DNA of 64,000 nt from Candidatus Nomurabacteria bacterium RIFCSPLOWO2_01_FULL_39_18 (GCA_001787005.1 MFUV01000005.1:2764-66763), one strand, 5' to 3'; positions 27,870 to 58,121 are shown, numbered from the stretch's first letter. Made by a program: numbers and translations. Notes: generated from the letters alone by a model not told the origin.

Positions 27870-29606
27870 ATGAAACCAATTTGTCAAAATTGCAAAGGTA
27901 AATTTACTATTGAACCAGATGATTTTGGTTTTTACGAAAAAATGAAGGTTCCGACGCCAACATTCTGTCTAGAATGCAGATTTGCTCGACGCATGTCCTG
28001 GAGAAATGAACGTTCATTATATAAAAGGAAATGTGATGCTACGGGAATCGATATAATTTCTATTTTCTCGCCTAATTCGGAGTATAAAGCATATGAAGAA
28101 AAATATTGGTGGAGTGATAATTGGAATCCACTTGATTATGGTATTGAATATGATTTTTCCAAATCATTTTTCGAGCAATATCAAGAATTATTAAAGCGGG
28201 TGCCGCATTTGGCTTTATTTAACATGTTGCATGTCAACAGTGAGTATTGCAACTATGCTTCCCACAACAAAGATTGTTATCTATTTACTGGTGGTGGGTG
28301 GAATGAAAAATTATCATATGTAAATCGCTCCACAAACTCAAGAGACTCAGTTGATTGCTACATCATCGAAAAAGATGAATTTTGCTACGATTGTTTATAT
28401 TGTTATGGATGTTACAAGCTTGCGCATTCCAATAACTGTGAAAATTGTTTGGAAAGTGCCTTCTTGTACAATTGCCGAAATTGCAGTTATTGTTTTGGCT
28501 GTACAAACCTTGTCAGTAAATCATATTGTATATGGAATAAGCAGTATTCTAAAGAGGAATATGAAGTGAAAATATCGGAAATGAACCTTGGAAGTTTTAA
28601 AGCCTTAGAAAAGTTGCGTAAAACTTTTGAAGAAGTTTATCTGAAATCAATACATAAATATGCGGATCTTATTAATTGTAAAAACGTGACAGGAAATCAC
28701 GTTCGTAATGCAAGAAACTGCACTCATTGTTTTGATTTTGGAGGAGACAATACTGAGAATTGTCATTACGCCACTTGGAGTGGATTCGGGGCCAAAGACT
28801 TGTTTGATGTCGGACCAGGTTCTGGATGGGTTTCTGAACTTGTCTATGAGTGTGTGGATACTATCGATGCTTCTAATTTATTGGGTTGTATGACCATACA
28901 TAATTCAAATAATATTTCTTATAGTATAAATTGCCATAGTTCTAGTAATCTTTTTGGTTGTTGCGGAGTAAAGAAAAAATCCTATTGTATTTTAAATAAA
29001 CAATATACCAAAGAACAGTATGAAGAACTGGTCCCCAAAATTATAAAACATATGGGAGATATGCCGTATATAGATAATAATAAAAAAGTATATAAATATG
29101 GAGAATTTTTACCAAGCAATTTATCATTCTTCGCCTACAATGAAACTATTGCTCAAGAATATTTCCCCTTAGCCGAAAAAGAGGCTGAAAAACAAGGCTA
29201 TAAATGGAAAAATCGGGAAGAAAGAAACCATTCTATAGACATTAAAAACGAAAATATTCCAGACAATATAAAAGACATGAGAGAAGATATTGTTGGCAAA
29301 GTCATCGAGTGCGCACATCGGGGAACTTGTAACGAACAATGCACAGAAGCCTTTAAAATTATTTCCTCGGAACTTCAATTTTATAAAAAAATGAACTTGC
29401 CAATACCACATCTATGCCCCAACTGTAGACATTATCAAAGATTAAAGAAAAGAAACCCATTAAAACTTTGGCATAGAATATGTATGTGCGAGAAAAAAAA
29501 TCATACACATAAAGGGAAATGCCCCGTAGAGTTTGAGACTAGTTATGCACCCGAACGCCCTGAAATTATTTATTGCGAGCAGTGTTACCAACAAGAAGTT
29601 TATTGA
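27870..29606 (+). CDS. Cys-rich zinc-ribbon protein, paralog A of a two-member family (unknown function)
   Basis: 578 aa with more than 40 Cys. N-terminal ribbon CQNCKGKFTIEPDDFGFYEKMKVPTPTFCLECRF. Central tandem CxxC arrays. C-terminal block LQFYKKMNLPIPHLCPNCRHYQRLKKRNP...YCEQCYQQEVY, shared nearly verbatim with the 56367..58121 ORF. Confidence 0.6.
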   Translation: MKPICQNCKGKFTIEPDDFGFYEKMKVPTPTFCLECRFARRMSWRNERSLYKRKCDATGIDIISIFSPNSEYKAYEEKYWWSDNWNPLDYGIEYDFSKSFFEQYQELLKRVPHLALFNMLHVNSEYCNYASHNKDCYLFTGGGWNEKLSYVNRSTNSRDSVDCYIIEKDEFCYDCLYCYGCYKLAHSNNCENCLESAFLYNCRNCSYCFGCTNLVSKSYCIWNKQYSKEEYEVKISEMNLGSFKALEKLRKTFEEVYLKSIHKYADLINCKNVTGNHVRNARNCTHCFDFGGDNTENCHYATWSGFGAKDLFDVGPGSGWVSELVYECVDTIDASNLLGCMTIHNSNNISYSINCHSSSNLFGCCGVKKKSYCILNKQYTKEQYEELVPKIIKHMGDMPYIDNNKKVYKYGEFLPSNLSFFAYNETIAQEYFPLAEKEAEKQGYKWKNREERNHSIDIKNENIPDNIKDMREDIVGKVIECAHRGTCNEQCTEAFKIISSELQFYKKMNLPIPHLCPNCRHYQRLKKRNPLKLWHRICMCEKKNHTHKGKCPVEFETSYAPERPEIIYCEQCYQQEVY

Positions 29607-29612
29607 AATAAA

Positions 29613-29822
29613 TTATTTAACGGGATCAATGTGATTTTTCTGCCATGGGTGGCAACGCAAGATCCGAAAAAATCCTAGACGAATTCCGTGAACTACCCCA
29701 TATTTTTCTATAGCTTGTTTTGTATATTCTGAACAAGACGGATAAAAAACACATTTGTTTGGAAGGGACAGAAATTTTTGGTAAAAATTAATTAATTTTA
29801 TTGAGTATGTTTTTAATTTCAT
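29613..29822 (-). CDS. yidD: Membrane protein insertion efficiency factor YidD
   Basis: [33 protein letters not shown]. The start is taken as the MKLKTY Met; the longer track ORF overlaps rnpA. Confidence 0.8.
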
Positions 29823-30114
29823 TTTCAATTGTCGGAACATCCTGCTGGTTCTTTTTAAAAAGAAAAACACCGATTAGGCCACGGGGGAAGCTTCTAATAT
29901 GTTTCCGGAGCGCGTCATAGCCCCGGCGTCTGAGAGAATTTCTTAGAACAGCCAGCTTTGCTATGTTTTTAGGCGCGATGAAAGAGATGCGAGGTAAGGT
30001 CGCATCAGTGGTTAGTATAAACTTAAAGCTTAAGTCGGAAGAATTAATAGAATTCCCTTTTTTGAAAAGAAAATCAATATCTCTTTTATCAACTCTATTC
30101 TCTTTGGGAAGCAT
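29788..30114 (-). CDS. rnpA: RNase P protein component
   Basis: 108 aa, basic, [19 protein letters not shown]... Located between rpmH and yidD. Confidence 0.8.
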
Positions 30115-30126
30115 GTTTAAACAAAG

Positions 30127-30261
30127 TTAAACACTGAGCTTTTTTCTGCCTTTTTGACGTCTTCGTAGCAAAACTTTGGAACCAGTTTTGGTCCTTGATC
30201 TAACCAAGAATCCGTGGGCTCTTGCTCTTTTTCTTTTTTTAGGCTGATATGTGAATGACAT
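30127..30261 (-). CDS. rpmH: 50S ribosomal protein L34
   Basis: [44 protein letters not shown], 44 aa. The track ORF is longer, but its N-terminal extension is upstream non-coding sequence. Confidence 0.9.
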
Positions 30262-30274
30262 GCAGAAAGTATAT

Positions 30275-30300
30275 AACATTATCCACAGATTATCAACATG
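30275..30300. promoter_or_regulatory. DnaA boxes in the rpmH-dnaA intergenic region (oriC / dnaA promoter region)
   Basis: Perfect TTATCCACA at 30279-30287 and a variant TTATCAACA at 30290-30298, immediately upstream of dnaA. Confidence 0.55.
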
Positions 30301-30354
30301 GTTAATAAGTTTTTGCAAGTATTGCAAATTTGATAAATAGTATAATATGAGACC

Positions 30355-31704
30355 ATGAATACAAAACAACTCTGGGAAAATTGCCTAGCAGAAATCGGGG
30401 CGGGTATATCAAAGGCCAATTTCAGCACTTGGTTCAAAAACACTTCTATTATCAAGGAGGACGCAGGTATTATTTATATTGGAGTGCCGAATGAATTTGT
30501 CCGCGACTGGCTGATGAATAAATATCATAAACTAATCACCAAAACCATAGCTGATGCATATGAAAATATGCGCGCTGTAGAATACGCCATTTCTAAAATA
30601 GAAAACAAAAAGCAAGAAATACTAACGGCAAGCGAAACCGAGCTTTATGTAAACAAAGAGCTACCCTTAAAAGATCTTTATATAAATCCAGAAGATAATT
30701 TAAACCCACGTTATCATTTTAATTCTTTTATCGTTGGAACCTTCAATGAGTTAGCATATGCTGCATCTCAGGCAATCATTGATAACCCAGGCACCAAGTA
30801 TAATCCCTTTTTTGTTTATGGGGGCACGGGCTTAGGTAAAACTCATTTAATCCAAGCGGTGGGGAATACAATAAAAGAAAAGTACCCAAATAAAAAGATG
30901 CATTACATGACCCTGGAAAAATTCGCCACTGACTTTGTGAATTCATTGCAGAGTAATAAAGCAAACTCTTTTAAAGAAAAGTATAGAAAGTATGATCTTC
31001 TAATCATCGATGATATTCAGTTCATTGGGAAAATGGAAAAAATTCAAGAAGAGCTCTTCCATACATTCAATACTTTTCATGAAAATAACAAACAAATCAT
31101 ATTTTCTTCGGATAAGCACCCTAACTATATACCAGAATTGGCTGAACGTTTAAAATCCCGTTTTGCCGCCGGTATGATAGTGGATATTTCTGAACCCGAA
31201 TATGAGTCCCGTCTGGCAATCTTGAAAGTAAAATTAAGAGAGCAAAACATTGATTTAGACCAAGAAATTATAGAGTATGTGGCAAGTGCGGTGGAGGGGA
31301 ATATTCGTGAACTAGAAGGGAGTTTAAATATTATTGTTTGCCAATATCGTTTGAAAAATAGGTCTTTAACACTAATGGAAGTTAAAAGTTTGTTAAAGAA
31401 CAGCATGAAGCCCAAGAAAAATATCGCGATAAAAGACGTTGTCAAACTGGTAAGTGAACATTATCAGCTAGAGGAAGCTTCTATTTATGAAAAAACCAGA
31501 AAAAAAGAGATCGTGAAGGCACGACAAATAGTGATGTATCTCTTACGAGAAGATTTCAATGTATCCTACCCACTAATTGGGCAAAAGTTGGGGGGAAAAG
31601 ATCACACAACAGTCATTCATTCTTGTTTAAAGATTAAAACTGACTTGAAAAACGACCCACAACTTCTGCAAGAATTGGAACAAATAAGAATTATGTTCAA
31701 ATAG
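30355..31704 (+). CDS. dnaA: Chromosomal replication initiator DnaA
   Basis: Walker [20 protein letters not shown], and C-terminal DNA-binding helix [13 protein letters not shown]. Confidence 0.95.
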
Positions 31705-31844
31705 TTAAAAGTTATGAATAATTATTAGACCTAAATTAAAAATAAACTAATAGAAACAGTCATATAAAACAATACAAAACCAACTTATCCACTTATTAAC
31801 ACACATATTAGTACTAATAAATTAAATATACAAAATATAAACAT
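31705..31844. promoter_or_regulatory. AT-rich dnaA-dnaN intergenic region with DnaA-box-like TTATCCACT; candidate oriC/DUE
   Basis: 140-nt, almost pure A/T spacer. One-mismatch DnaA box at about 31777-31785. Typical position for a bacterial origin. Confidence 0.45.
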
Positions 31845-32942
31845 ATGAAACTAGAATGCCAGGTTGAAAAGATAAAAAATGGAATTTTACAAGTTGAAAA
31901 AATTACTGGTAAAAATTTAACTTTGCCAATTTTAAATTCAATTCTTTTGGTTGCGTCATCTAAATCTTTAAAACTTAGGTCTACAAACCTTAGTCTTGGG
32001 ATTGAGATAGAAATCCCAGCAAAAGTAGAAAAAGAAGGAATTGTTGCTGTGTCTGGATCGGTATTAGGGGGTATTTTTTCTAATGTTTTTCAAAACGAGA
32101 GTGTTTCTCTTGAGGATTTTGGTGGGAATCTGTTAATAAAAACAAAAAAAAGCCAAATAAAACTAAAATGTCAACCACACGAAGATTTCCCCACAATACC
32201 CAAAGTTGCTGGAACAATTTTTGAGATAGAATCAAAAAAATTAACAGACGGAATAAAATCTGTGTATTACAGCTCCTCTCCATCTGATATAAAACCCGAA
32301 ATTTCAAGCGTTTTTATTTATTCAGTAGAAGATAATTTGATTTTTGTTTCGACCGACTCTTTTAGGCTGGCTGAAAAGAGAGTAAAAATAAAAAGACTTG
32401 AGGAGATAAGTGGCATTCTTATCCCATTTAAAAACGTTTCTGAGATATTGAGAATTTTTGGGGAATTAACTGGTACCGTAGAAGTTTGTTTTAATAAAAA
32501 CTTAATTTCCTTTTCAACAGGAGATATTTATTTGACTTCACGGGTGATTGATGGAATTTTCCCTGATTATCGCCAGATTATTCCTAAAGATTCAGAAACC
32601 AATGCGGTGGTTCTCAAGCAAGATTTATTAAACGCGCTTAAACTTTCAAATATTTTTTCAGACAAACTTAACCAAGTCAACCTTAAAATTTTGCCGAAAG
32701 AGAAAATTTTTGAATTGTCTTCTGCCAATAATGATGTGGGCGAGAATAAAACATATTTAGATGCTGCCCTGGAGGGGGAGAGTGTCTTGCTTGGTTTTAA
32801 TTATAAATATTTTTTAGATTGTTTACAATCAATCAATACTGACAGTGTGTCTATAAAACTCTCTGGAGCGACACGGCCCATAGTTATATCTCCCGTGAGT
32901 GATTCATCATTTACTTATCTTATAATGCCAATGAATAGGTAA
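31845..32942 (+). CDS. dnaN: DNA polymerase III beta subunit (sliding clamp)
   Basis: 365 aa directly downstream of dnaA with a three-domain beta-clamp layout (..RPIVISPVSD..YLIMPM C-terminus). Confidence 0.9.
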   Translation: MKLECQVEKIKNGILQVEKITGKNLTLPILNSILLVASSKSLKLRSTNLSLGIEIEIPAKVEKEGIVAVSGSVLGGIFSNVFQNESVSLEDFGGNLLIKTKKSQIKLKCQPHEDFPTIPKVAGTIFEIESKKLTDGIKSVYYSSSPSDIKPEISSVFIYSVEDNLIFVSTDSFRLAEKRVKIKRLEEISGILIPFKNVSEILRIFGELTGTVEVCFNKNLISFSTGDIYLTSRVIDGIFPDYRQIIPKDSETNAVVLKQDLLNALKLSNIFSDKLNQVNLKILPKEKIFELSSANNDVGENKTYLDAALEGESVLLGFNYKYFLDCLQSINTDSVSIKLSGATRPIVISPVSDSSFTYLIMPMNR

Positions 32943-32952
32943 CTGGGGGGAG

Positions 32953-35472
32953 CTAATAGTCCACTTCAAAGGCCGAAGTCGTTTCTCCGCGGTTAAAGAC
33001 ATTATCATAGAAGATTATCTTCAACTCATTATTTTTTTGTAAGTTTTCCAGCTCTTTAGGGATGAAAGAGAATGAAAAGGGGGCTTCCAAAGTTTCTAGA
33101 AAAACATCATTTACAAAAACATCAACTCTCTCCAACGGGAAACGCCCTGAACTTGAAATCTCCAGCTGTATCTTCTGGTCAGGCAAATAAGTTTTTGTTC
33201 CACTAGGTTCAATAATAAAGACTTCAGGCTTTGATTGATCGGTATGCACATCGTCCACTCTGTTTGGCTTATCATTCCAAGTGGTTATTGGGTACCTTCC
33301 TTTATTTTGTGCCCACCAGTTTTGTACAGGAATTTCCCAATGGCTGAATTGCTGGTTTCCAGATGGATTTTGAGGTGGTGGCCCCAAGATGTCATTCCTA
33401 TCCACCCAAAAAAGGATCGAGTGCACATTTGTTACCACTTTTTCTTCCATGGTTTCTTTTGGGGTAAACTCTCCAGCTAGTTTCCCGGATATTTTATCTT
33501 TAAAGAAATTTTCATTACCTTGCCAGAAACCTCGCAATATTGGCTTTATTGTTTGCGGGTCAGTTTCCAGATTTGGTTCCTCAAATTTTTCATTAGGCAG
33601 AACTTTTAAAGTCTCACTTATATATTTATTCCAGATCGGCCCCGCCAGAGCTACCCCGCCTTTTTTCATTGCTTTATTATCATTATTACCCGCCCAGACA
33701 CCCACCACGATCGAAGGGGTATAACCTATCGTCCAGGCATCCTTATTATTATTTGTTGTTCCGGTTTTTACAGCTACGTCCTTTCCAGGAACAAAAAGAG
33801 CCGAATGCGCCCCAAAAGTTGGAATGCGAGATTTTTCATCCGAAAGAATGTCTGAAATAATCAAAGCAGTGTTTTTCGGCAAAACTTCCCATGAATTTGG
33901 CTTAAATTCTTCTAAAATGTTTCCGTTCAAATCTTCAATTTTTAAAATTCCAGTGTAGGGACTTCTCATCCCATCATTTGCAAAGACTCCATACGAAGAT
34001 GTCATGTCGAGAAGGGATACTTCTCCACCTCCGATAACAAGGGTCAAGCCATACCTGCCGACATCAGTTAAAGTTTTAATACCCATATCTTCTGCTGTTT
34101 TTAAAGAATCAGATAGCCCGGCTAAATAGAAAAGTTTTACAGCAGGGATGTTGATTGATTGCGCTAGGGCGTTTCTTAAGCTGACGGGGCCTCGAAATTT
34201 CCCGTCATAATTGTCAGGCTTGTAACAATCTTTTTGATTGTGACCGGGCAATGCTCTGCCATAAGCGTCACAGGTAGTCTGAAATTCCGTGGACAGATCA
34301 AAGAGCACTGTGTCGGGAGTAAAGCCCTTGTTAAAGGCTGTGGCGTAGATAAAAGGCTTAAAAGAAGATCCTGGTTGTCTCACCGCTGTCGCGATATTGA
34401 AATTGCCATCAATTGTTTTGTCGAAATAATCTCTTGAACCGATCATCGTTAGAATTTGTCCTGTTTTGGGATCGATTGCCACCAATCCAGCATTTGATCC
34501 ACCCCAATCTTTTTCATTTTGCGATGCTCCCTCCTTCACTATTTGTTCTCCCTTTTCTTGTAAATTATAATCAAGCGTTGTTGTAACTTTTAGCCCGCCC
34601 TTTTCCACCATATCACTTCCATATTTTTCTTCAAGATAATCTTTAATGAAAAAAATAAAGTGTGGAGCTTTAATCCCCGTAGTATTCTGTGGAGCAAAGA
34701 CCACGGTCTCTTTTTTGGCTGTGTTATATTCTTCCTCGCTAATAAAATTAAGCTCCAACATTCGAGAGAGCACTAAATTTTTTCTTTCTTCTAATTTATT
34801 TCTATTTTTACCATAAGGCGAGAGGAAAGTTGGGGATTGCGGGATTGATGCTAAATAAGAAGCTTCGGCCAGAGTCAGATCAAGCGCTTTTTTATTGAAA
34901 TAAGTTTTGCTTGCTTCTTCGATTCCATAAACATTCCCGCCGTAGGGGGCTTCATTTAAATAGTATTCCAAGATTTTTTCTTTCGACATGGAATTATCTA
35001 TTTTAATTGCCAAAACCCATTCCTTTATTTTTCTAGTATAAGTCTTCTTTTGTGTTAAGAGCGTGTTTTTTACTAACTGCTGGGTTATAGTCGAACCGCC
35101 TTGAGTACGGCCAGTGCCAAAAAGATTGGACAACACGGCACGAATAATAGAAGTGATTCTTATTCCGCTATGATTGTAAAATTCAGAATCTTCAATGGCA
35201 ACAGTTGCGTTTTTAATGTTTGCGCCCATGTTTCCAAAGGCAATGTCAGTTCTTTTCGTGTCTCTATGCACATCATAGAGCAAGATTTCTCCCGTACGAT
35301 CATAAATTCTGATAGAATTTTCAACCTTCCTATCTTCAAAGGAATGGAAATCCGGTATCTGGAAAGAAGATATCCAGAGCATCCCTGTTCCAGCCATAAG
35401 TATAGAAATACTTATACAAAACAGGATTAAATTCTTCCGAAAACTTTTATTTATTCTAGGCTTCTCTATCAT
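32953..35472 (-). CDS. Bifunctional penicillin-binding protein 1A (GT51 transglycosylase + transpeptidase)
   Basis: N-terminal TM segment. GT51 motifs AIEDSEFYNHSGI and TITQQLVKN. Transpeptidase motifs SSFKP, SIN and KTGTT. 839 aa. Confidence 0.9.
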   Translation of the reverse strand: MIEKPRINKSFRKNLILFCISISILMAGTGMLWISSFQIPDFHSFEDRKVENSIRIYDRTGEILLYDVHRDTKRTDIAFGNMGANIKNATVAIEDSEFYNHSGIRITSIIRAVLSNLFGTGRTQGGSTITQQLVKNTLLTQKKTYTRKIKEWVLAIKIDNSMSKEKILEYYLNEAPYGGNVYGIEEASKTYFNKKALDLTLAEASYLASIPQSPTFLSPYGKNRNKLEERKNLVLSRMLELNFISEEEYNTAKKETVVFAPQNTTGIKAPHFIFFIKDYLEEKYGSDMVEKGGLKVTTTLDYNLQEKGEQIVKEGASQNEKDWGGSNAGLVAIDPKTGQILTMIGSRDYFDKTIDGNFNIATAVRQPGSSFKPFIYATAFNKGFTPDTVLFDLSTEFQTTCDAYGRALPGHNQKDCYKPDNYDGKFRGPVSLRNALAQSINIPAVKLFYLAGLSDSLKTAEDMGIKTLTDVGRYGLTLVIGGGEVSLLDMTSSYGVFANDGMRSPYTGILKIEDLNGNILEEFKPNSWEVLPKNTALIISDILSDEKSRIPTFGAHSALFVPGKDVAVKTGTTNNNKDAWTIGYTPSIVVGVWAGNNDNKAMKKGGVALAGPIWNKYISETLKVLPNEKFEEPNLETDPQTIKPILRGFWQGNENFFKDKISGKLAGEFTPKETMEEKVVTNVHSILFWVDRNDILGPPPQNPSGNQQFSHWEIPVQNWWAQNKGRYPITTWNDKPNRVDDVHTDQSKPEVFIIEPSGTKTYLPDQKIQLEISSSGRFPLERVDVFVNDVFLETLEAPFSFSFIPKELENLQKNNELKIIFYDNVFNRGETTSAFEVDY

Positions 35473-35546
35473 TGATAGATTATAACAGAAAATAGCCTGT
35501 CCCGTAGGAATTTTGAAAATTTCCTTTAAGATGTTATTATTCGAAT

Positions 35547-36731
35547 GTGAAAGTTATAACCAATAAAGAAAAAATAGATGAACTCTTAACTCGAGGGGTT
35601 GAAAGAATTTATCCATCTCGCGAAAAACTAGAAGAAGTTCTGCTTTCCGGCAAGAAGTTGAAACTCTATCAGGGCTTTGACCCGACAGGAGACAAACTGC
35701 ACCTTGGGCATATGGTGGGTCTAAGGAAATTGGCCGAATGGCAATCATTGGGACACCATGTTATTTTTTTAATTGGTGACTACACTGCGATGATCGGAGA
35801 TCCGTCGGGAAAGTTGTCATCCAGAAAAGTACTTACTCACGAAAAGACCATGGCTAACGCGAAAAATTATAAAGAACAAGCGTCTAAAATCCTTAATTTT
35901 AATGGTGATAACCCAGCCGAAGTGCTTTTTAATGGAGACTGGTTGGGTAAGTTAAGTGCAGTGGAGTTTCTAAGAATTGCTGGGAACTTAACTTATAGTC
36001 AGGTCATTGAACGAGACATGTTTCAAGAGAGGTTAAAACAAGGGCAGGATATAAACACAACTGAATTTTTATATCCAGTTATGCAGGCCTATGACAGTGT
36101 TGTTATGGATGTGGATCTGGAGTTGGGGGGAAGAGATCAAATGTTTAATATGATGATGGGACGCAAGCTCATGCGACAAATTCTTAAGAAAGAAAAGTTT
36201 GTTATGACCACGAAACTTTTAGAAGATAGTCAGGGCGTCAAGATAGGCAAAACTGAAGGCAACGCTATCGCTCTCGATGATAAACCAGAAGATCTGTTTG
36301 GTAAAATAATGGCTTTCCCGGATGAAGTAATCGTTCCTTGCTTTGAGGCTTTAACTACAATACCGATGAGAGAGATTCCAAACAAAAATCCATTGGAAGA
36401 CAAGAAGAGACTTGCATTCGAGATTGTAAAGGATCTAAATAATAAAAAAAATGCGCAAGCCGCACAAGAAAATTGGGAAAATACTTTTCAGAAAAGAGAA
36501 ATTCCCAAAGAAATAAAAGAAATAGAGGTTAAAGATGGCGAATCCTTGAGTGGGATTTTAGTAAAAATAAAAATCCTACCCTCAAAAAGCGAGTGGCGCA
36601 GGCTTGTCTTAAGCAATGCCATTCATGACTTAGCTAAAAATAGAAACATTACGGATGTAAATTTAAAAATAAAAGGAAATTTGATTCTTAAAATAGGTAA
36701 GAAAAAGTTTATCAAGATCAGGACTAAATAA
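35547..36731 (+). CDS. tyrS: Tyrosyl-tRNA synthetase
   Basis: YQGFDPTGDKLHLGHMV (HIGH), KIGKTEGNAIAL (KMSKS-type KFGKT motif), and a C-terminal S4-like domain. Confidence 0.9.
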   Translation: MKVITNKEKIDELLTRGVERIYPSREKLEEVLLSGKKLKLYQGFDPTGDKLHLGHMVGLRKLAEWQSLGHHVIFLIGDYTAMIGDPSGKLSSRKVLTHEKTMANAKNYKEQASKILNFNGDNPAEVLFNGDWLGKLSAVEFLRIAGNLTYSQVIERDMFQERLKQGQDINTTEFLYPVMQAYDSVVMDVDLELGGRDQMFNMMMGRKLMRQILKKEKFVMTTKLLEDSQGVKIGKTEGNAIALDDKPEDLFGKIMAFPDEVIVPCFEALTTIPMREIPNKNPLEDKKRLAFEIVKDLNNKKNAQAAQENWENTFQKREIPKEIKEIEVKDGESLSGILVKIKILPSKSEWRRLVLSNAIHDLAKNRNITDVNLKIKGNLILKIGKKKFIKIRTK

Positions 36732-36740
36732 ATACAAACT

Positions 36741-36768
36741 AAAACACCCCGAGCGGGGTGTTTTAGTT
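36741..36768. terminator. Intrinsic terminator hairpin after tyrS (cacccc-gagc-ggggtg + TTTTA)
   Basis: 6-bp G/C stem with a 4-nt loop followed by a T tract. Could work in both directions. Confidence 0.7.
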
Positions 36769-37052
36769 AGGTGTATCTACTTTCTGGATCATCATCTTCT
36801 GGTTCAAAGCCGGGCATTTCTTCGAGTGGGATATTTGGGTCGAATGACTCTTCATCACCGTCCACCTTAAACCCACTACTTATTTCTTCATCTTCATCGT
36901 AACTCATATAAAATTATTTTTTTCCGCCAGGGGCGGATCCGCCTTGGGCGGAAAATTTTTTAAACGACCAAATTATATTTATTTCCCAATTTCATACTTT
37001 GTAACAAAATATAAATCGCTTGGCAATAGCAAAAAGACCAAAAGTGTGGATA

Positions 37053-37122
37053 ACCCGGTAGTAGAGCTTTGCGATATGCGAAGCATGCATCGAAGATGCG
37101 TCGCAAAGTCTCACTACCGGGT
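37053..37122. repeat. REP-like hairpin element, copy 3
   Basis: acccggtagtagagctttgcga ... tcgcaaagtctcactaccgggt with an inner GCATGC-centred hairpin. Same termini as copies 1 and 2. Confidence 0.5.
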
Positions 37123-37128
37123 AACTCC

Positions 37129-37608: not shown

Positions 37609-37680
37609 AAGTTAAGTTTAACACTTTTTAATTCGTAGACACACCACATTCTCTGATAATTATGTTAAAATTAAATCATT

Positions 37681-39507: not shown

Positions 39508-40581
39508 CTACAAAAGCTTACTTTGTTTTTCTTTCACCTTAACCCCCAGATGTTCGTACGCCTTCTTGGTAGCCACCCGGCCGCGAGCAGTGCGCTCGAG
39601 GAGTCCAAGCTGGATTAAATATGGCTCTATTACTTCTTCCACTGTCGCTTCTTCCTCAGACATCGCTGCTCCGATAGTTTTCAATCCCACCGGTCCGCCA
39701 CCGAATTTCTTAATTAATATTTCCAGAAATTTTCTATCAGAAGGATCTAAGCCGAGTTCATCAATCGCCAGCATGGCAAGGGCACTTTTCGTTGTTTCTT
39801 TACTTATGGTTTTTTTGCCTGCCCCGTAGGAAGCAAGATTCCCTTCGGGGTGAACTTGAGCAAAGTCTCGGACTCGTTTTAAGAAATAGTTAGCCGTGCG
39901 GGGAGTGAACCTGCTTCGTTTAGCTATCTCTTCCAGAGCGCCACTGTCTAATTTTGCCTTAAGTAATTTACTAGATCTTTCTATTATTTTTTCAATCTCT
40001 TTATTTGAGTAAAATTCCAGCCTGAAAACTCCACCAGAGAATCTTGATCGTAGCGGTGAAGAAATCAAAGCTACTCGGGTGGTAGCCGCTATCAAGGTGA
40101 AAGGGGGGAGATCTAATTGAATTGTTCTGGCAGATGGTCCCTTGCCGAGGATGATATCTAGAACTCCAGACTCCATGGCAGGGTAGAGTATTTCTTCAAC
40201 CATTTTATTGAGTCGATGGATTTCATCAATGAAAAGGATATCGCCCGGGGATAAATTTGTAAGAATGGAAGCCAAGTCACCCACTTTCACGATTGCTGGT
40301 CCGGAAGTGATTTTTATTTGTCGGTTGGTTTCCTTGGCAATCAGATGAGCCAAGGTGGTTTTACCTAGACCTGGGGGACCATAGAAAAGAATGTGTTCTG
40401 GTATATGTCCGCGCTCTTTGGCAGCTTGTAAAAGAATTTTGACGTTATCCTTTATGTGTTTTTGGCCTATATACTCATCAAAACGCGTAGGACGCAAGGT
40501 CTGGTCCAAAAAAGAATCTTCAGATTTACTTGCCCCGCCCTGGCTTCTGGCGCTTGTTTCTTTGGTTATTTTGCTTGACAT
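39508..40581 (-). CDS. ruvB: Holliday junction branch-migration helicase RuvB
   Basis: ILFYGPPGLGKTTLAHLIA and DILFIDEIHRL. Carries a 30-nt GC-rich palindromic insert at 39821-39850, translated as PEGNLASYGAGKK. Confidence 0.95.
   Translation of the reverse strand: MSSKITKETSARSQGGASKSEDSFLDQTLRPTRFDEYIGQKHIKDNVKILLQAAKERGHIPEHILFYGPPGLGKTTLAHLIAKETNRQIKITSGPAIVKVGDLASILTNLSPGDILFIDEIHRLNKMVEEILYPAMESGVLDIILGKGPSARTIQLDLPPFTLIAATTRVALISSPLRSRFSGGVFRLEFYSNKEIEKIIERSSKLLKAKLDSGALEEIAKRSRFTPRTANYFLKRVRDFAQVHPEGNLASYGAGKKTISKETTKSALAMLAIDELGLDPSDRKFLEILIKKFGGGPVGLKTIGAAMSEEEATVEEVIEPYLIQLGLLERTARGRVATKKAYEHLGVKVKEKQSKLL
39821..39850. repeat. CCCCGTAGGAAGC...TTCCcTTCGGGG palindromic element inside ruvB
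   Basis: Imperfect palindrome. Same family as 53858-53889 (uvrA), 56331-56360 (intergenic), and the degenerate copies at 2877-2908 and 35497-35527. Confidence 0.6.
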
Positions 40582-48578: not shown

Positions 48579-48585
48579 AAATTTT

Positions 48586-51112: not shown

Positions 51113-51798
51113 TTTTCCTTTGACTCAAACCATATCTTGCCCTGGTGTTGCTCGATGATATTTTTACTTACGTATAGTCCCAAACCAGTTCCATCAGCAT
51201 GATGATGCAACGCGCGAGACGATCTGAAAAATTTTGTAAATATTTTCCCGAATTCTTCCTTAGGGATGCCAATACCCATATCCTTGATTGAAATAACGAG
51301 CTCATGGTCATTACAAGCGACTTCCAGCTCCACCCTGTCTCCCGAGGAAGAATATTTGATAGCATTATCAAAAATATTATTTATAGCCATCTCCATTTTT
51401 TCTATATCTACATTAAGCGGAGGTAGGTCAGGGGGGATTTCAAACTTAAAAACAACCTTCTTTTCATCTCCAATATTTTTAAATGAATCCTTAAGATTTT
51501 TAAATACTGGCAAAATGGATTGTTTCTTCAAAATAACTCCGAAAGATCCCTCCGCAATCTGGCCTACATTCAGAAGATCATTCACCAAGCTGAGCATGTG
51601 GCTCGTGGCTACAGAGGCTTTAGATATAATTTGCTTCTGATCAGGGTTCAATTTACCCGCTTCTCCGGAAGAAAGAATTTCCAAAGACCATTTCAATCCA
51701 ATTAATGGGGTTCTTAACTGATGGGCGGCAATAGTGACAAATTCGGCATTTGGCAAGATTTTTCTTACTTTTTTATGAGATTTTGCCTGTTTCATCAA
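51073..51798 (-). CDS. Cytoplasmic sensor histidine kinase (HisKA + HATPase_c, no TM region)
   Basis: H-box AAHQLRTPL; N-box IFDNAIKYS; G-boxes DMGIGIPKEEFGKIF and GTGLGLYVSKNII. Overlaps the uvrB 3' end by 40 nt on the opposite strand. Confidence 0.85.
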   Translation of the reverse strand: MMKQAKSHKKVRKILPNAEFVTIAAHQLRTPLIGLKWSLEILSSGEAGKLNPDQKQIISKASVATSHMLSLVNDLLNVGQIAEGSFGVILKKQSILPVFKNLKDSFKNIGDEKKVVFKFEIPPDLPPLNVDIEKMEMAINNIFDNAIKYSSSGDRVELEVACNDHELVISIKDMGIGIPKEEFGKIFTKFFRSSRALHHHADGTGLGLYVSKNIIEQHQGKIWFESKENQGTTFFVLLPVP

Positions 51799-51904
51799 TA
51801 TTTGTAATTTTACTAAAATTTGCCAAATAAGTCCAAAATGTATTCACATTTGTGTTCATTGTATATTTGCGCATTTCCCCCACAAATGATATAATTCTAC
51901 CGTT

Positions 51905-52327
51905 ATGGCATCTGACGACAAACAAAAAACTATTGATGGACTTTCCAAGAAAAGAGTGTTGTTAGTTGAAGATGATGTTTTTCTAAGCGACATTATTGCC
52001 CGCAAACTTGTTGCTCAAGGCTGCGTTTTCCTCTACGCGCAAGATGGTGAGAAAGCGCTGCTCCTAGTGGAGAGAGAAGTACCAGATATTATTTTACTCG
52101 ACATTCTTCTTCCTGGCATTAATGGTTTTGATCTGCTTAAAAAATTCAAAGAAAATCCAAAGACTAAAGATATCCCAGTCATCATTCTTTCCAATTTAAG
52201 CCAGCCTAGTGATATAGAGAAAGGCAAAAGCCTAAAAGCTGCCCGTTTCTTAATAAAAGCTACCACCTCGACCGATGGAATAATGTTGAAACTAAAAGAA
52301 GTCCTGGAAGAGAAGAAAAAATCCTAA
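51905..52327 (+). CDS. Single-domain response regulator (CheY-like receiver)
   Basis: VLLVEDDVFL, phospho-acceptor Asp in IILLDILLPG, and the conserved Lys region. 140 aa. Divergent from the histidine kinase. Confidence 0.85.
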   Translation: MASDDKQKTIDGLSKKRVLLVEDDVFLSDIIARKLVAQGCVFLYAQDGEKALLLVEREVPDIILLDILLPGINGFDLLKKFKENPKTKDIPVIILSNLSQPSDIEKGKSLKAARFLIKATTSTDGIMLKLKEVLEEKKKS

Positions 52328-52406
52328 AAAGAAGACTTTTGTATTTTTTCTGCTATACTAAATTTATATACACCCCCTATGAATAAAGTGGGGTGCGGTT
52401 GTATTT

Positions 52407-54977
52407 ATGGCAAAACAAGAAAAAGAATCAAATAAAATAATAATAAAAGGGGCGCGAACACACAACCTTAAGAATATTACGGTTGAAATACCACGAGATA
52501 AGATGACAGTCATTACCGGAGTTTCTGGAAGTGGCAAATCTTCTCTCGCCTTCGATACAATTTTTGCCGAAGGGCAGAGGCGATACGTAGAGTCGTTGTC
52601 TTCTTATGCCCGGCAATTTCTGAATCAAATGCCCAAGCCGGACGTGGATGAAATCACGGGGCTTTCACCCGCTATTTCCATTGACCAAAAATCCCGATCG
52701 AACAATCCTCGCTCCACCGTAGCGACCATTACAGAAATTTATGATTATCTCCGGGTAATGTACGCGCGTATTGGGCACCCGCACTGCCCGGAATGCGGAG
52801 AAGAGATAAAGAAACTTTCTAATGAAGAAATTTTGAATTTTATTCAAAATAAAATCAAAACTCATTCTTCTGTTTCTATTTTTTCTCCAGTCGTTAGAGG
52901 GAGAAAAGGAGAATATTACCAGTTATTGTACGACTTGCTGGGCAAAGGTTTTTCCGAGATTCGGCTGGATGGAACGATGAAAAAGCTTCGGGAGCAAATC
53001 ACCCTCTCAAAATACAAAGCTCACAACATCGAGGTCTTGGTGGATGGTTTTTCGATTGATGGATTAAAAAAAGAAGAATTGCGCATGCGCTTGTCTGAAG
53101 CGATCGAGCGAGCTCTGATTGAATCTGACGGACTAGTCACAACTAAAATTAATGATGAAGAATTTATTATGTCTGCAAAATTTGCCTGCAAAAATGACGG
53201 CTTTTCTTTTCCAGAGATTGAGCCTCGTTTATTTTCTTTTAATTCTCCCTATGGCGCATGCCCAGCTTGTAATGGCCTTGGTTCGAAGTATTTTATGGGA
53301 GACGAACCCTGTGATGTTTGTCATGGTGCGCGCCTTCGCACCGAAGCCCTAAATGTTTTTTTGGAAACTAAAAATAAAAAAGTTAATATTTTAGATCTCG
53401 CTTCTCTCTCCATTGCCGATGCGCATGATTTTTTCAAGAACCTTAAGCTCTCAAGCCAAGAGAAAGAAATATCCATGCCAGTAGTGAGGGAGATAGAAGC
53501 GCGGCTACAATTCATGCTCGACGTTGGGCTCAACTACCTTCAGCTTTCTCGTAAAGCCAATACTCTCTCCGGCGGAGAGGCTCAGCGCATTCGCCTGGCT
53601 TCACAGCTCGGCTCCAGGCTTGTGGGAGCTCTCTATGTGCTCGATGAGCCGACGATAGGGCTTCATCAACGAGACAATGACCGTTTAATCAGAACATTGC
53701 AGAATCTGCGCGATCTAGGCAATACGATTTTAATTGTTGAACACGATGAAGACACTATTTATGCATCAGATTATATCGTAGATATTGGACCGAAGGCTGG
53801 GGTGCATGGCGGGGAAATTATTGTTTCTGGTTTTCTCGAGGATTTATTGACTGCTAACCCCGAACGAAAGCCTACGGCTTCATACGGGGCAGGGAAAAAC
53901 ACGAAGTCCAGAACACTTGGCTATTTAAGAGGTGAGTTAAAAATAGAAATTCCCAAGAAGCGTCGCGGCGGTAAAGGCGCGCTTCGCATCAGCGGGGGAA
54001 AAATTTTTAATATAAATAATTTGAATGTAGAAATTCCGCTTGGCGTCATGACCTCTATCACCGGTGTGTCCGGGAGCGGTAAAAGTTCCTTAATGTATGA
54101 AATTCTTTACAAGAATTTACAGGCGAGGTATGAACGCAAATATCGTACTGCTAAAGTTTACAATTGCTCTTCTTTTTCTGGTACTGAATACCTATCTCGA
54201 GCGATTTTAATTGACCAATCACCCATTGGTCGAACTCCGCGTTCTAATTTGGCAACTTATACGGGCGCTTTTACTCATATTCGAGACCTTTTTGCCACCA
54301 CCGAAGAGGCTCGTCTGCGTGGCTGGAAGGCAAACCGCTTTTCTTTCAACGTCAAAGGCGGCCGCTGTGAAGCTTGTGAAGGCAACGGCGAGATCGCTGT
54401 GGAAATGCACTTTTTGCCGACAGTTTACGTGACTTGCGATGTATGCAACGGCAAAAGATTTGATAAAGAAACACTTACTGTAAAATATAAGAAAAAAAAT
54501 ATTTATGAAGTGCTCCACATGACGGTCGAAGTTGGACTCTCATTCTTCAAGGACATTCCTGCGATTTCTGATCGACTGGAAACTCTGATGGATGTGGGAC
54601 TAGGGTATCTAGAGCTTGGTCAGTCGGCCACCACACTCTCTGGCGGGGAAGCGCAACGGGTAAAAATATCGAGTGAGCTATATCGTCCGCATGCAGATAT
54701 GACCATCTATCTTCTTGATGAACCTACTGTGGGGTTGCACTATGATGATGTGCATAAACTATTGGAAGTGTTAAATAAACTTGTAAGTAAAGGCAACACC
54801 GTCATTCTAATAGAGCACAATCTGGACATTATAAAGAGTTCAGACTACATAATAGATATTGGGCCAGAAGGGGGAATGAATGGGGGTAATTTAGTGGCGA
54901 AGGGCACACCAGAAGAAGTGGCGAATAATACAAAAAGCTACACTGGGAAATATTTAAAGAGGGCTTTACGCAAATGA
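52407..54977 (+). CDS. uvrA: Excinuclease ABC subunit A
   Basis: Two ABC modules ([15 protein letters not shown] and [15 protein letters not shown]), LSGGEAQR x2, and zinc-finger Cys clusters. Carries a 32-nt palindromic insert at 53858-53889 translated as [13 protein letters not shown]. Confidence 0.95.
53858..53889. repeat. CCCCGAACGAAAGC..GCTTCATACGGGG palindromic element inside uvrA, same family as the ruvB insert
   Basis: Its reverse complement, ccccgtatgaagc...ttcgttcgggg, matches the CCCCGTAGGAAGC/TTCCTTCGGGG termini. Both intragenic copies read ASYGAGK in the host frame. Confidence 0.6.
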
Positions 54978-56260
54978 AAATTGAATTAATAAAAAAAATA
55001 CCTGATAAATCTGGAGTCTACTTTTTCAAAAAAGGTAAAGAAATTCTTTACATTGGCAAAGCAACATCACTGAAAGATAGAATAAAAAGTTATTTTGGCA
55101 AGGACTTGATACAAACTAGGGGGCCACTTCTGGTGGATATGATCGTTCGTGCAAATAAAATAGATTGGCAAGAGACAGACAATGTTCTGGAGGCTATAAT
55201 TCTCGAAGCCAACTTGATTAGAAAGCACCAACCCTATTACAACACCAAAGAAAAAGACGACAAAAGTTTCAACTTCGTTTGTATCACAAGAGAAAAGTTG
55301 CCTAGAGTAATTACTGTGCGGGGGAGTAGTGTTAAACACCGAGTGTTTAACAAAATCTACGGACCATATACGAGTGGCGTACATCTTCGTGAAGCGCTCA
55401 AGATAATCAGGAAGATTTTTCCATTTTTAGATGATAAAAGTAAAAATTATATTGAATTTTATCGACAAATAAATTTAATTCCTGACCTAAATGACCTACC
55501 GACGCAGGCAAGTCGTAAACTATATTTGCAAAATATCAAAAATATCAAATTGTTTTTGGGTGGCAAGAAAAAACAAATTTTCAAAAACTTGAAAAAAGAA
55601 ATGCATGAATACGCGAAGAAGCATGAATTTGAAAAAGCCGGAGAAATTAAAAGACAGCTTTTTGCTCTACAACACATCAATGACATTGCTTTATTAAAGG
55701 CTAATAGCTTCGCAGACAGTAAAATTTTTGATCCTGCGCCCTTCTTTGGGCGCAGGATAGGGAACAAAGCGGAACCCTCGGATACAAAAATTTCATTGTC
55801 TGCTTCGCCGATTCGCATTGAGGCCTACGACATAGCTCACATGGGTGGCAAAAATATGGTAGGAGTGATGATAGTAGTTGAAGAAGGTGAACTGGTGAAA
55901 AGTGAGTATAAAAAATTCAGGATAAAAACTCAAGCTGGAGCAAATGATACTGGTGCGCTTGCGGAGATTCTAGAGAGGCGTTTGGCGCACAGAGAATGGG
56001 CATATCCTGATTTAATCGTAGTTGATGGCGGAATAGCCCAAATAAATATGGCTAAAAAAAATTTATCAAGGATTCACCTTGATATTCCCGCAGTGTCGGT
56101 TGTAAAAGACGAAAGACACAAGCCAAAAAGCATTATGGGTGAGAGAGAAATTGTGGCAAAATATAAAAGGGAGATCTTGCTTGCGAACAGCGAAGCGCAT
56201 AGATTTGCCATCGCATACCACAAAAAAATGCGTAATAAAAATTTCCTTAAAATTTATTGA
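54974..56260 (+). CDS. uvrC: Excinuclease ABC subunit C (short form lacking the C-terminal HhH region)
   Basis: N-terminal GIY-YIG (SGVYFFKKGKEILYIGKATSLKDR), UvrBC-binding region (EKAGEIKRQLFALQHI), and an RNase H-like endonuclease domain. 428 aa. Start overlaps the uvrA stop (ATGA). Confidence 0.9.
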   Translation: MKIELIKKIPDKSGVYFFKKGKEILYIGKATSLKDRIKSYFGKDLIQTRGPLLVDMIVRANKIDWQETDNVLEAIILEANLIRKHQPYYNTKEKDDKSFNFVCITREKLPRVITVRGSSVKHRVFNKIYGPYTSGVHLREALKIIRKIFPFLDDKSKNYIEFYRQINLIPDLNDLPTQASRKLYLQNIKNIKLFLGGKKKQIFKNLKKEMHEYAKKHEFEKAGEIKRQLFALQHINDIALLKANSFADSKIFDPAPFFGRRIGNKAEPSDTKISLSASPIRIEAYDIAHMGGKNMVGVMIVVEEGELVKSEYKKFRIKTQAGANDTGALAEILERRLAHREWAYPDLIVVDGGIAQINMAKKNLSRIHLDIPAVSVVKDERHKPKSIMGEREIVAKYKREILLANSEAHRFAIAYHKKMRNKNFLKIY

Positions 56261-56330
56261 TTTAAACTGCAAAAGGCATACTATATAAAAATGAAGTTCG
56301 AAACAAGAATCTGCCAGAACCCCGAAGGAA

Positions 56331-56360
56331 AGTAAAGCTTCCTACGGGGCAGGTTGCAAA
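56331..56360. repeat. Intergenic copy of the CCCCGTAGGAAGC...TTCCTTCGGGG palindromic element (reverse orientation)
   Basis: ccccgaaggaaagtaaagcttcctacgggg. Sits 7 nt upstream of the ATG of the Cys-rich paralog B. Confidence 0.55.
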
Positions 56361-56366
56361 AAAGTT

Positions 56367-58121
56367 ATGGAATATAAATCAAAAAATGTAGTGTGCCAGA
56401 ACTGTAAAAGTAGCTTCACGATAGAGTCGGAAGATTTTAATTTTTATGAAAAACTCAAAGTTCCTCCGCCAACTTGGTGCCCACATTGTAGATTTATAAG
56501 AAGATTAACATTTATTAATCATCGCTCTCTTTATAAGCGTGTTTGTGAACACTGTAATGCATCTACAATATCTATGTATCATCCCGATACACCTATTCCC
56601 GTTTGGTGTGTAAAATGCCATATTAGTGATGCTTGGGACGCTAGAGATTATGCAAAAGAATATGATTTCTCAAAACCCTTTTTTGAGCAATTCAATGATT
56701 TAAAGATTAACGTACCTCACCGGGCACTTGACCAAAATGAAAAGAATGGCACAGGATGTGAATATTCAAATTATTGCTTTGGGTCTAAGGATACCTACTT
56801 GTCTTTTAGTGTGGGTGGTTCCGAGAATGTTAAGTATTCGGCTCATGTTTTTAAGGGGAATAAAAATTGCTTTGATAGTTTGAGTGTTAAAAACAGCGAC
56901 CGAGTTTATGAACTAGTCCAATCCAGCGGTAGTTACAATTCATCTTTTTTAATAGAGAGTGATCAATGCATTGAATCACATTTCCTTTTTGATTGCTCTA
57001 ATTGCACAAATTGTTGCCTATCTTTAAATCTTAGAAACAAGAGTAATGTTTTTAGAAATAAACAGCTTTCAAAAGAAGAATATCAAAAAGCTTTTTCCAA
57101 ACTTAAGCTTGACACATACTCTGGTCAACTAAAAGCCAAAGAAGAATTTTATAAAATTGCACAAAATGCCATCCACAGAGATGCGCACATAAAAAATTCA
57201 GTGAACACGATAGGAGATTTTATTGAGAATTCAAAAAACGTTTACCATTGTTATGGTCTCATTGGTGCTGAAAATATAAAGCATATATTTTTCGCAATGA
57301 ATATGATTAAAGATTCTCAAAACATCGCGTTTTGCGGTCTCAATGAGGAATGCTATGAATTTACTTACGGCGGACGTGACGCAAATAAAGCAATTTTTGC
57401 TATAAGTTGTGGAGGAGGATGTAAAAATATTTTTTATTGCGATAGCTGTCGTGAATGTTCTGACTGCTTCGGCTGTGTTGGTCTTAGTAAAAAACAATAC
57501 TGTATTTTAAATAAACAATACTCGAAGGAAAAGTATTTTGAAATGATTAAAAAAATACAAGCTCATATGAATAATAATCCATATATAGACAGAATCAACC
57601 GAAAATACTCCTTTGGTGAATTTTTTCCTACTGAAATTTCCCCATTTGCTTACAATGAAACTGTAGCATTTGAAGAACAACCTCTTTCCCAGAAAGAAGC
57701 CATATCTCTGGGATATAAATGGCGAGAACCGGAATTAAAATCTTATAAACCGACAATAAAAGGGGATGATATTCAAGATAGCATTAATGATGTTGCTGAT
57801 TCTATATGTAACGAGATCATTGAATGTCCCAATCAAGGCAAAGTGAAAACACAATGTACTTCTGCATACAGAATATTACCTGATGAATTGTCATTTTATC
57901 GCCAGATGAATTTACCAATCCCGAGATATTGCCCCAATTGCAGATATCATGCCCGCTTGGTCTGGAAAAACCCCTTTCGTTTTTATGAGCGAGAATGTAT
58001 GTGTGAGCTGTCGAATCACGAACATCAACAAAAGTGCTCAAATAAATTTGAAACGATATACGCGCCCGATAGGCCGGAACTAATTTATTGTAAAGAATGT
58101 TATCAAAAAGAAGTGTACTAA
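56367..58121 (+). CDS. Cys-rich zinc-ribbon protein, paralog B
   Basis: 584 aa. N-terminus CQNCKSSFTIESEDFNFYEKLKVPPPTWCPHCRF and C-terminus LSFYRQMNLPIPRYCPNCRYHARL...YCKECYQKEVY are collinear with the 27870..29606 ORF throughout. Confidence 0.6.
   Translation: MEYKSKNVVCQNCKSSFTIESEDFNFYEKLKVPPPTWCPHCRFIRRLTFINHRSLYKRVCEHCNASTISMYHPDTPIPVWCVKCHISDAWDARDYAKEYDFSKPFFEQFNDLKINVPHRALDQNEKNGTGCEYSNYCFGSKDTYLSFSVGGSENVKYSAHVFKGNKNCFDSLSVKNSDRVYELVQSSGSYNSSFLIESDQCIESHFLFDCSNCTNCCLSLNLRNKSNVFRNKQLSKEEYQKAFSKLKLDTYSGQLKAKEEFYKIAQNAIHRDAHIKNSVNTIGDFIENSKNVYHCYGLIGAENIKHIFFAMNMIKDSQNIAFCGLNEECYEFTYGGRDANKAIFAISCGGGCKNIFYCDSCRECSDCFGCVGLSKKQYCILNKQYSKEKYFEMIKKIQAHMNNNPYIDRINRKYSFGEFFPTEISPFAYNETVAFEEQPLSQKEAISLGYKWREPELKSYKPTIKGDDIQDSINDVADSICNEIIECPNQGKVKTQCTSAYRILPDELSFYRQMNLPIPRYCPNCRYHARLVWKNPFRFYERECMCELSNHEHQQKCSNKFETIYAPDRPELIYCKECYQKEVY

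Follow-up and report, generated by a model that had tools for sequence, protein, structure and literature searches.

Two paralogous genes, designated A and B, in a 64,000-nucleotide stretch of the genome of Candidatus Nomurabacteria bacterium RIFCSPLOWO2_01_FULL_39_18 (GCA_001787005.1, MFUV01000005.1:2764-66763; referred to here as the window) were found to encode cysteine-rich proteins of a doubly duplicated architecture, in which a double treble-clef zinc module stands at each end, two homologous solenoids lie between, and a hub leads into the C-terminal module. The protein family and its core fold are new, in that neither the core nor the architecture is described or modelled in the resources searched; already known are the sequences, which are public as hypothetical proteins, and the type of the terminal fingers, which is catalogued. 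The family is far larger, more often multicopy, and more widespread within the candidate phyla radiation (CPR), or Patescibacteria, than a view of these two genes implies. As to function, we tentatively read the sequences as those of soluble, cytoplasmic, zinc-stabilized, rod-like proteins specific to the Patescibacteria, which would act as rigid bivalent nucleic acid binders with a paralog-specific solenoid surface, a proposal that we regard as possible and as well short of probable.

Architecture and comparison with catalogued domain families

An earlier reading of the window, made from the sequence only, had described A and B as collinear paralogous open reading frames (ORFs). The coordinates that it gave were exact (Table 1), and BLASTP aligned the two proteins from A4/B9 through the final residue with 236 of 579 positions identical (41%), 59% positives, and 7 gaps (E = 8e-151). 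A tblastn search found no other family copy in the 64-kb window. The N-terminal and C-terminal motifs quoted in the sequence-only reading are present in both proteins, but its figure of more than 40 Cys residues in each was too high, as 39 were counted in A and 37 in B. The dense Cys array that it quoted, FCYDCLYCYGCYK..NCENC..NCRNCSYCFGC, occurs in solenoid 1 of A and not in solenoid 1 of B, which retains only five Cys residues; the dense array of B lies in its second solenoid (CDSCRECSDCFGC, B358-370). Similarly, the description of the proteins as zinc ribbons holds for the termini, both of which carry zinc-binding modules, whereas the central CxxC arrays are solenoid core rather than ribbons. 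Neither protein has a signal peptide or a transmembrane or other hydrophobic segment, and the overall pI is approximately 7 to 8, with mildly basic terminal modules in a protein that is neutral as a whole. B is 100% identical to a public protein of Candidatus Nomurabacteria bacterium RIFCSPLOWO2_01_FULL_39_18 (A3A95_00425, 515 aa), the annotated start of which lies 69 codons too far downstream (window positions 56367-56573) and so excludes the conserved N-terminal zinc module. As orthologs align with B from its first residue, the ORF of 584 aa is the true extent of the gene.

Comparison of protein segments with hhalign revealed two nested duplications. The N-terminal module (A 8-81) matched the C-terminal module (A 491-574) with a probability of 99.6% (E = 1.7e-24), and the first half of the center (A 120-238) matched the second half (A 269-391) with a probability of 99.9% (E = 2.3e-37). 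In a family alignment of 378 sequences (A numbering), Cys residues conserved in at least 91% of the sequences are those at positions 5, 8, 33, and 36 in the N-terminal module, 193, 202, 205, and 208 in solenoid 1, 364 and 373 in solenoid 2, and 481, 491, 516, 519, 538, 551, 569, and 572 in the C-terminal module, while C55 is conserved in 88% and C355 in 83%. The second N-terminal finger (C55/58/76/79) has all of its Cys residues in 192 of the 378 sequences, including B, and is degenerate in the others, including A. The remaining central Cys residues are 20 to 65% conserved and mostly alternate with Ser, which argues that they are small core-packing residues rather than metal ligands. From conservation, we infer four Zn sites in A-type and five in B-type proteins (N1, N2 where intact, the solenoid-1 cap, C1, and C2), of which the predicted cap site at the end of solenoid 1 would be formed by four inward-facing Cys residues (C193/C202/C205/C208). 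Cys co-occurrence statistics were not used to assign metal sites, because subfamily structure confounds them. Cys-rich coils tend to occur in one solenoid only, 1 or 2, as in A and in B (A 172-181 versus 355-364; odds ratio, 0.08 to 0.31, subject to the same confounding).

Both ends of the protein, the solenoid caps (..CFGCxNLRNKxYCIxNKQYxKEEY), and the hub (YGEFFPxELSPFAYNETIAQEYFP) are highly conserved, and the conservation profile shows the solenoid bodies to be the most variable part. Outside the zinc modules, conservation is highest in the hub, which was also modelled with confidence. In both terminal modules, the helix that follows each second CxxC carries conserved Arg or Lys residues.

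With 22 to 44 Cys residues per family member (median, 35) and a CutA1 gene as neighbor in a few loci, the proteins might be taken for a metal or redox buffer, that is, a metallothionein-like zinc store or a thiol sink. However, only approximately 18 of the Cys residues are conserved and the others are exchanged with Ser, and a buffer would not be expected to have this length, a conserved hub outside the Cys residues, or at least eight distinct ancient paralogs. This explanation is poorly supported and highly improbable.

Nothing above threshold was found for A or B in Pfam, NCBIfam, PHROGs, PADLOC, or PDB sequences, and the central approximately 380 aa had no match in Pfam, NCBIfam, PHROGs, PADLOC, or PDB in single-sequence and profile searches or in a fold search with two AlphaFold2 (AF2) models. 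The earlier statement that the family is uncharacterized is thus borne out, with no confident match in these databases or among PDB folds. Radical_SAM (CxxxCxxC) and SPASM domains were searched for in A, B, and 56 relatives at E values up to 1 or 0.1 and not matched; neither these domains nor a known nucleic-acid-binding zinc-ribbon family, the relatives that the sequence-only reading had named as possible, was found. There was likewise no match to DnaJ_CXXCXGXG or another chaperone family, and no hidden Markov model (HMM) match among antiphage defense (PADLOC) or phage (PHROGs) families.

The same reading had not recognized the family at all, which is correct for the core and not for the terminal motifs, which are divergent forms of PF13451 (zf_Tbcl) and PF23477 (zf_Tbcl_2)/TIGR04272. 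In A and B these domains remain below the Pfam gathering cutoffs: for PF13451 (cutoff, 24 bits), the N terminus of A scored 13.7 bits (E = 0.062) and that of B 19.9 bits (E = 7e-4), and for PF23477 (cutoff, 27 bits), B 53-85 scored 17.3 bits and the C terminus of B 13.5 bits. Among 33 distant family members, zf_Tbcl_2 was matched in 23 (best E, 2e-6), zf_Tbcl in 11 (best E, 3.7e-6), and the NCBIfam model TIGR04272 (CxxC-x17-CxxC) in 14 (best E, 8e-6). Many relatives have a precomputed PF13451 match and the NCBI name "zinc-ribbon domain containing protein". By Foldseek, the terminal fingers superimposed on phage "putative zinc-ribbon domain" proteins with a root mean square deviation of 0.6 to 0.7 Å over 43 to 44 residues (probability, 0.96 to 1.0).

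PF13451, described as a "probable treble clef domain", has in common with the family a CxxC-x24-CxxC arrangement followed by an Arg-rich helix, with FY between the knuckles. In A, the CxxC knuckles are approximately 24 residues apart, C5, C8, C33, and C36 are at least 98% conserved, and the fold match is to a treble clef. The domain nevertheless makes up only approximately 9% of the 580-aa protein, in which it is present twice, with a split first knuckle in the C-terminal copy. PF23477/TIGR04272 shares the ending ..F.(T/P).Y.P.RPE.VYCxxCY with the second finger of each terminal module. The spacing in B is C60-x2-C63-x17-C81-x2-C84, and the C-terminal copy ends RPE(I/L)IYCxxCY in A and B; in contrast to the catalogued finger, the N-terminal copy is degenerate in about half of the family, including A, and the C-terminal copy has an insertion of approximately 10 residues in its first knuckle. 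Both finger families are catalogued and themselves have no assigned function. HMMs of the modules, run against all ORFs of 84 CPR loci and the window, found no other architecture carrying them, and a literature search on these Pfam identifiers, CPR Cys-rich families, and Parcubacteria zinc ribbons returned nothing specific. Families enriched in the Parcubacteria are mostly hypothetical (Meheust 2019, PMC6744442).

In a spectral analysis of the family alignment, Cys and other small residues recurred in both halves of the center with a period of exactly 3.0, and hydrophobic residues with one of approximately 12. The AF2 model of B, built from a 127-sequence alignment (predicted local distance difference test [pLDDT] score, 86; predicted template modelling [pTM] score, 0.88), shows a 12-residue strand pattern by DSSP. 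From these periods, each half is best read as a narrow β-solenoid of about nine 12-residue coils with an inward-facing small residue, often Cys, at every third position. Foldseek searches with the B model found no match in the PDB (best E, 4.6), and a search of the BFVD viral models matched only the terminal fingers and nothing in the solenoid core.

A coil of 12 residues with a small residue (C/S/A) at every third position was also seen, by the same spectral analysis, in the Tenebrio molitor antifreeze protein TmAFP (PDB 1EZG). TmAFP is, however, secreted and disulfide bonded and has a TxT ice-binding face, whereas the family is cytoplasmic and has ladders of Asn/Asp-Cys/Ser-x-Tyr/Phe without TxT. 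Because neither sequence searches nor Foldseek matched the family to 1EZG, the likeness is an analogy of geometry and not homology.

The left-handed β-helix (hexapeptide) proteins LpxD, GlmU, and γ-carbonic anhydrase share the solenoid topology and are the only PDB folds that the model of A retrieved, weakly, by Foldseek. These matches were rejected, as they had E values of 0.008 to 0.1, a template modelling (TM) score of approximately 0.1, and the wrong coil length (18 residues in the left-handed β-helix proteins, 12 in the family), and they disappeared with the better model of B. That all of them are enzymes, together with the conservation and confident modelling of the hub, could suggest an enzyme with its active site in the hub (GEFFPxELSPFAYNETxAQEYFP) or on the solenoid, as in the left-handed β-helix acyltransferases. 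Besides the weakness of the matches themselves, the lack of a Hexapep match in A and B, of any catalytic Pfam domain, and of a recognizable nucleotide-binding or catalytic motif makes an enzyme very doubtful.

Distribution and copy number in the Patescibacteria

Whether A, B, or a distant member served as query, a word-seeded search recovered more than 6,000 clusters at 90% identity (E ≤ 1e-3) among the 8,000 candidates scored. The matches are nearly all 540 to 610 aa long, and where a name is given it is almost always "hypothetical protein". When 1.84 billion representatives at 50% identity were searched exhaustively with a profile, 4,815 were retrieved at an E value of ≤1e-3, 3,646 at 1e-10, and 2,168 at 1e-30; the best 150 profile matches are mostly full length, with a few truncated ORFs. 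Phyletic mapping, which the sequence-only reading had proposed, placed every named source in the Patescibacteria. These sources comprise Nomura-, Staskawicz-, Giovannoni-, Lipton-, Sungii-, Niyogi-, Jorgensen-, Falkow-, Kerfeld-, and Uhrbacteria, the Peregrinibacteria, and the Gracilibacteria, and at least 556 family loci were found among GTDB species representatives. Two apparent proteobacterial carriers, metagenome-assembled genomes (MAGs) labelled Burkholderiales (L041; JAMPXW010000002.1, a 268-kb contig) and Gammaproteobacteria (L046), were rejected as mis-binned at 30 to 35% GC; in addition, the gene order on the contig labelled Burkholderiales is one typical of Paceibacteria. Co-binning of host and symbiont is possibly the origin of such CPR contigs.

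The 84 loci examined contain 183 family ORFs, and 52 of them have two to four full-length copies within approximately 6 kb, plus fragments. Tandem copies are almost always codirectional, with a median gap of approximately 20 bp. Neighboring copies are approximately 45% identical, and for 97% of them a closer relative (median, 62% identity) exists in another genome, so that the arrays are ancient retained paralogs and not recent amplifications. The copies represent ancient orthologous subfamilies, and the family is under strong purifying selection. On the 672-kb contig GCA_028718635.1, at least eight copies take up approximately 2% of the DNA. Three of these form a tandem array following scpB; single copies follow uvrC, separate ftsW from murG, lie between two genes for ATPases like type IV coupling proteins (T4CPs), and start 1 bp after dnaJ, and there is one further copy.

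Insertion of copies into otherwise conserved operons (yidD/yidC and ftsW/murG) and the occurrence of treble clefs in HNH-type nucleases, which give weak BFVD matches, would fit a family of selfish or mobile genes with housekeeping gene clusters as insertion sites. In contrast to that expectation, no near-identical copies were found within genomes, where neighbors differ as described above. A tblastn search of phages and plasmids and a scan of IMG/VR recovered no relative of the family, and neither a nuclease or transposase domain nor terminal repeats were found. We consider this the least probable of the explanations and, like the buffer, poorly supported.

Gene neighborhoods and possible functions

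Clustering of the neighborhoods of the 84 loci, which contain 119 family blocks, identified no universal partner, and most neighbors are unique housekeeping genes. The sole recurrent neighbor is a TrwB/TraG/HerA-type ATPase (TrwB_AAD_bind, TraG-D_C, and DUF87), present in 28 of the 84 loci, directly upstream on the same strand in 15 of the 119 blocks (gaps of 1 to 83 bp) and directly downstream in 10. A longer form of this ATPase (15 of the 40 ORFs of its cluster) carries a zf_Tbcl_2 finger (PF23477; E = 3.6e-11) that aligns with the C-terminal finger of the family (hhalign E = 2.9e-5). The TrwB/TraG/HerA-like ATPases of Paceibacteria are soluble (L034:3886-5889, L020:551-2737, and L090:3314-5458), and the CxxC-x17-CxxC finger of the longer form is C terminal. 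Upstream of the ATPase, where examined, are genes for a conserved 460-aa membrane protein and a HARE-HTH/sigma70_r4 protein, and a second, shorter ATPase paralog lies directly upstream of dnaJ.

This linkage, the shared finger, and the resemblance of the multicopy tandem arrays to effector families would be expected if the family were a partner, adaptor, or substrate of the T4CP/HerA-like ATPase, either in the handling of DNA during uptake or transfer or as cargo of a type-IV-like export system in episymbiosis. However, none of these ATPases is near A or B in the window, and approximately 79% of the blocks do not have one as immediate neighbor. Strong purifying selection and ancient orthologous subfamilies are unlike fast-evolving effectors, and the many predicted Zn(Cys)4 sites and the lack of a signal peptide favor an intracellular protein. 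A role as ATPase partner or export cargo is therefore improbable.

Chaperone genes are the other linkage seen, with DnaJ in 15 of the 84 loci, DnaK in 8, and GrpE in 4; within the window, neither these nor the ATPase is found near A or B. Protein contacts are a frequent role of treble-clef and DnaJ-type Cys-rich fingers, and the family could on this ground be a protein-protein adaptor or an assembly or chaperone cofactor, in which the zinc modules and the hub dock to a common machine, the solenoids bind clients, and each paralog serves its own operon. The copy 1 bp after dnaJ, the copies inside the ftsW-murG, scpAB, and uvrABC operons, and the combination of conserved ends with a variable middle agree with such a role. 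On the other hand, the chaperone linkage is a minority pattern that may reflect the synteny of a T4CP-dnaJ block, no chaperone family was matched, and no partner is conserved across loci. We regard an adaptor or cofactor as unlikely, though less so than an ATPase partner.

Binding of nucleic acid, the function that we tentatively prefer, is proposed because the zf_Tbcl_2 finger is common to the family and to a DNA-translocase-like ATPase that is its commonest neighbor, and because the Arg/Lys helices are conserved and the terminal modules mildly basic. A paralog-specific role of the solenoids is supported by the conservation of the ends and the variability of the middle. In each of the two homologous terminal modules, the second CxxC is immediately followed by a conserved Arg-rich helix, and the modules would contact nucleic acid, RNA or DNA, at two points, which the rigid twin solenoid would hold at a fixed distance. 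Each copy would owe a distinct target or partner to the poorly conserved solenoid surface, which differs among paralogs, so that the family may be a set of target-specific nucleic-acid-binding organizers or regulators whose copies are embedded in distinct housekeeping operons (uvrABC, dnaJ, ftsW-murG, scpAB, and yidC/rnpA).

Several observations weigh against nucleic acid binding. Treble-clef fingers can serve in protein-protein contacts as well, the pI of the whole protein is not strongly basic, and searches of Pfam, NCBIfam, and PDB sequences matched no known DNA- or RNA-binding family. Zn occupancy and a metal site in the solenoid cap are predicted from conservation. Context constrains function little, because neighborhoods are mostly not conserved, with a unique upstream neighbor in 60 of the 119 family blocks. 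In favor of the proposal, genome context was found to be conserved in part: orthologs of B with 69 to 70% identity keep the order uvrA-uvrC-B-spoU in two other genomes, but the uvrC linkage is lost in a 62% identical ortholog and may be plain synteny among close relatives.

A more far-reaching and, in our view, quite unlikely interpretation would make the family a novel class of structural proteins in bacteria, each member being a rigid rod of two Cys-lined β-helices with 12-residue coils and internal metal sites. Its end modules would bind nucleic acid or one another, and the at least eight paralogs would form a CPR-specific scaffold organizing the nucleoid or the envelope. If true, such a scaffold would replace missing conventional regulators or cytoskeletal factors.

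Features of the window and significance of the family

The positions of A, B, and their parts in the window, which has a GC content of 38.7%, are given in Table 1.

Table 1. Positions in the window of genes A and B, their protein segments, and an adjacent hairpin
Feature	Position	Strand	Evidence
Paralog A, complete ORF including stop, 578 aa	27870..29606	+	100% identical to public database protein
A aa 1-54, zf_Tbcl-like treble clef (C5, C8, C33, C36) with basic helix CRxxRRxxxRNER	27870..28031	+	Cys conservation; weak PF13451 match; hhalign to C module
A aa 55-82, degenerate second finger (zf_Tbcl_2 position), C55 alone kept	28032..28115	+	Alignment
A aa 118-225, solenoid 1, approximately 9 coils of 12 residues, C193/C202/C205/C208 at C-terminal end	28221..28544	+	Alignment, hhalign, periodicity
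A aa 271-378, solenoid 2, homologous to solenoid 1, conserved C355/C364/C373	28680..29003	+	hhalign
A aa 379-478, helix and conserved hub (YGEFFPxELSPFAYNETIAQEYFP...GYxW)	29004..29303	+	Conservation profile; pLDDT 85-98 in B model
A aa 479-578, C-terminal double zinc module: zf_Tbcl-like C481, C491, C516, C519; zf_Tbcl_2-like C538, C551, C569, C572	29304..29603	+	
Imperfect hairpin in uvrC-B spacer, one of three related; context only, outside protein	56320..56349	+	Hairpin comparison in window
Paralog B, complete ORF including stop, 584 aa	56367..58121	+	Orthologs cover residues 1-584
B aa 1-88, intact N-terminal double zinc module: zf_Tbcl C10, C13, C38, C41; zf_Tbcl_2 C60, C63, C81, C84	56367..56630	+	Sub-gathering PF13451 (E = 7e-4) and PF23477 (E = 4e-3)
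B aa 123-233, solenoid 1, Cys-poor; C201, C210, C213, C216, C217 kept	56733..57065	+	
B aa 279-384, solenoid 2, full Cys-lined coil C361/C364/C367/C370 plus C358, C379	57201..57518	+	DSSP 12-residue period
B aa 385-484, helix and conserved hub region	57519..57818	+	Conservation profile; model
B aa 485-584, C-terminal double zinc module (C487, C497, C522, C525; C544, C557, C575, C578)	57819..58118	+	

Gene A had been placed in the origin region, divergent from yidC, and this is the case: A on the plus strand is separated by a 54-bp spacer from yidC-jag on the minus strand, and Pfam matches identified dnaA adjoining. On its other flank is yidD-rnpA-rpmH, also on the minus strand and convergent with A, again by Pfam. 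The rpmH-rnpA-yidD-yidC-jag cluster beside dnaA (window positions 26579-30369), elsewhere widely conserved, is here interrupted by A on the opposite strand. Close relatives of A (81% and 60% identity) are located elsewhere in unrelated contexts. The divergent spacer (27816-27869) contains a TATAAT hexamer at 27858-27863, 6 nucleotides 5' of the ATG of A, and no obvious Shine-Dalgarno sequence, and from these sequences the transcript of A may be leaderless or have a very short leader.

Gene B follows uvrC, as had been noted, in the order uvrB ... uvrA-uvrC-B-SpoU methylase-methyltransferase (Pfam). The palindrome described 5' of B was found as an imperfect hairpin, CCCCGAAGGAA..TTCCTACGGGG, and probably corresponds to what the sequence-only reading called an "ASYGAGK-family palindrome". 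It is the third copy of an imperfect-hairpin family, CCCCG(W)AGGAAG-loop-CTTCC(W)ACGGGG, the other copies of which lie at 39822-39850 and 53858-53889. Half-sites of the hairpin occur 14 times in the window (5.3 expected), and the copy in the uvrC-B spacer has a predicted RNA fold of -19.2 kcal/mol (z = -2.8). The hairpin family is probably a terminator or an element like the repetitive extragenic palindromic (REP) sequences. An inverted-repeat scan around A and B gave no exact repeat at a seed of at least 6.

Patescibacteria have genomes of approximately 0.6 to 1 Mb and are thought to shed every dispensable gene, and yet a minimal genome of 672 kb still keeps at least eight diverged copies of a protein of approximately 580 aa. 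Despite its thousands of sequence clusters, the family is unnamed, lacks a structural relative, and is not represented by a Pfam or NCBIfam model of its core. Its role, once known, would address a large conserved piece of CPR-specific biology and would explain what the orphan zf_Tbcl and CxxC-x17-CxxC fingers do. The core could also add a cysteine-lined, possibly metal-filled β-helix to the structural repertoire.

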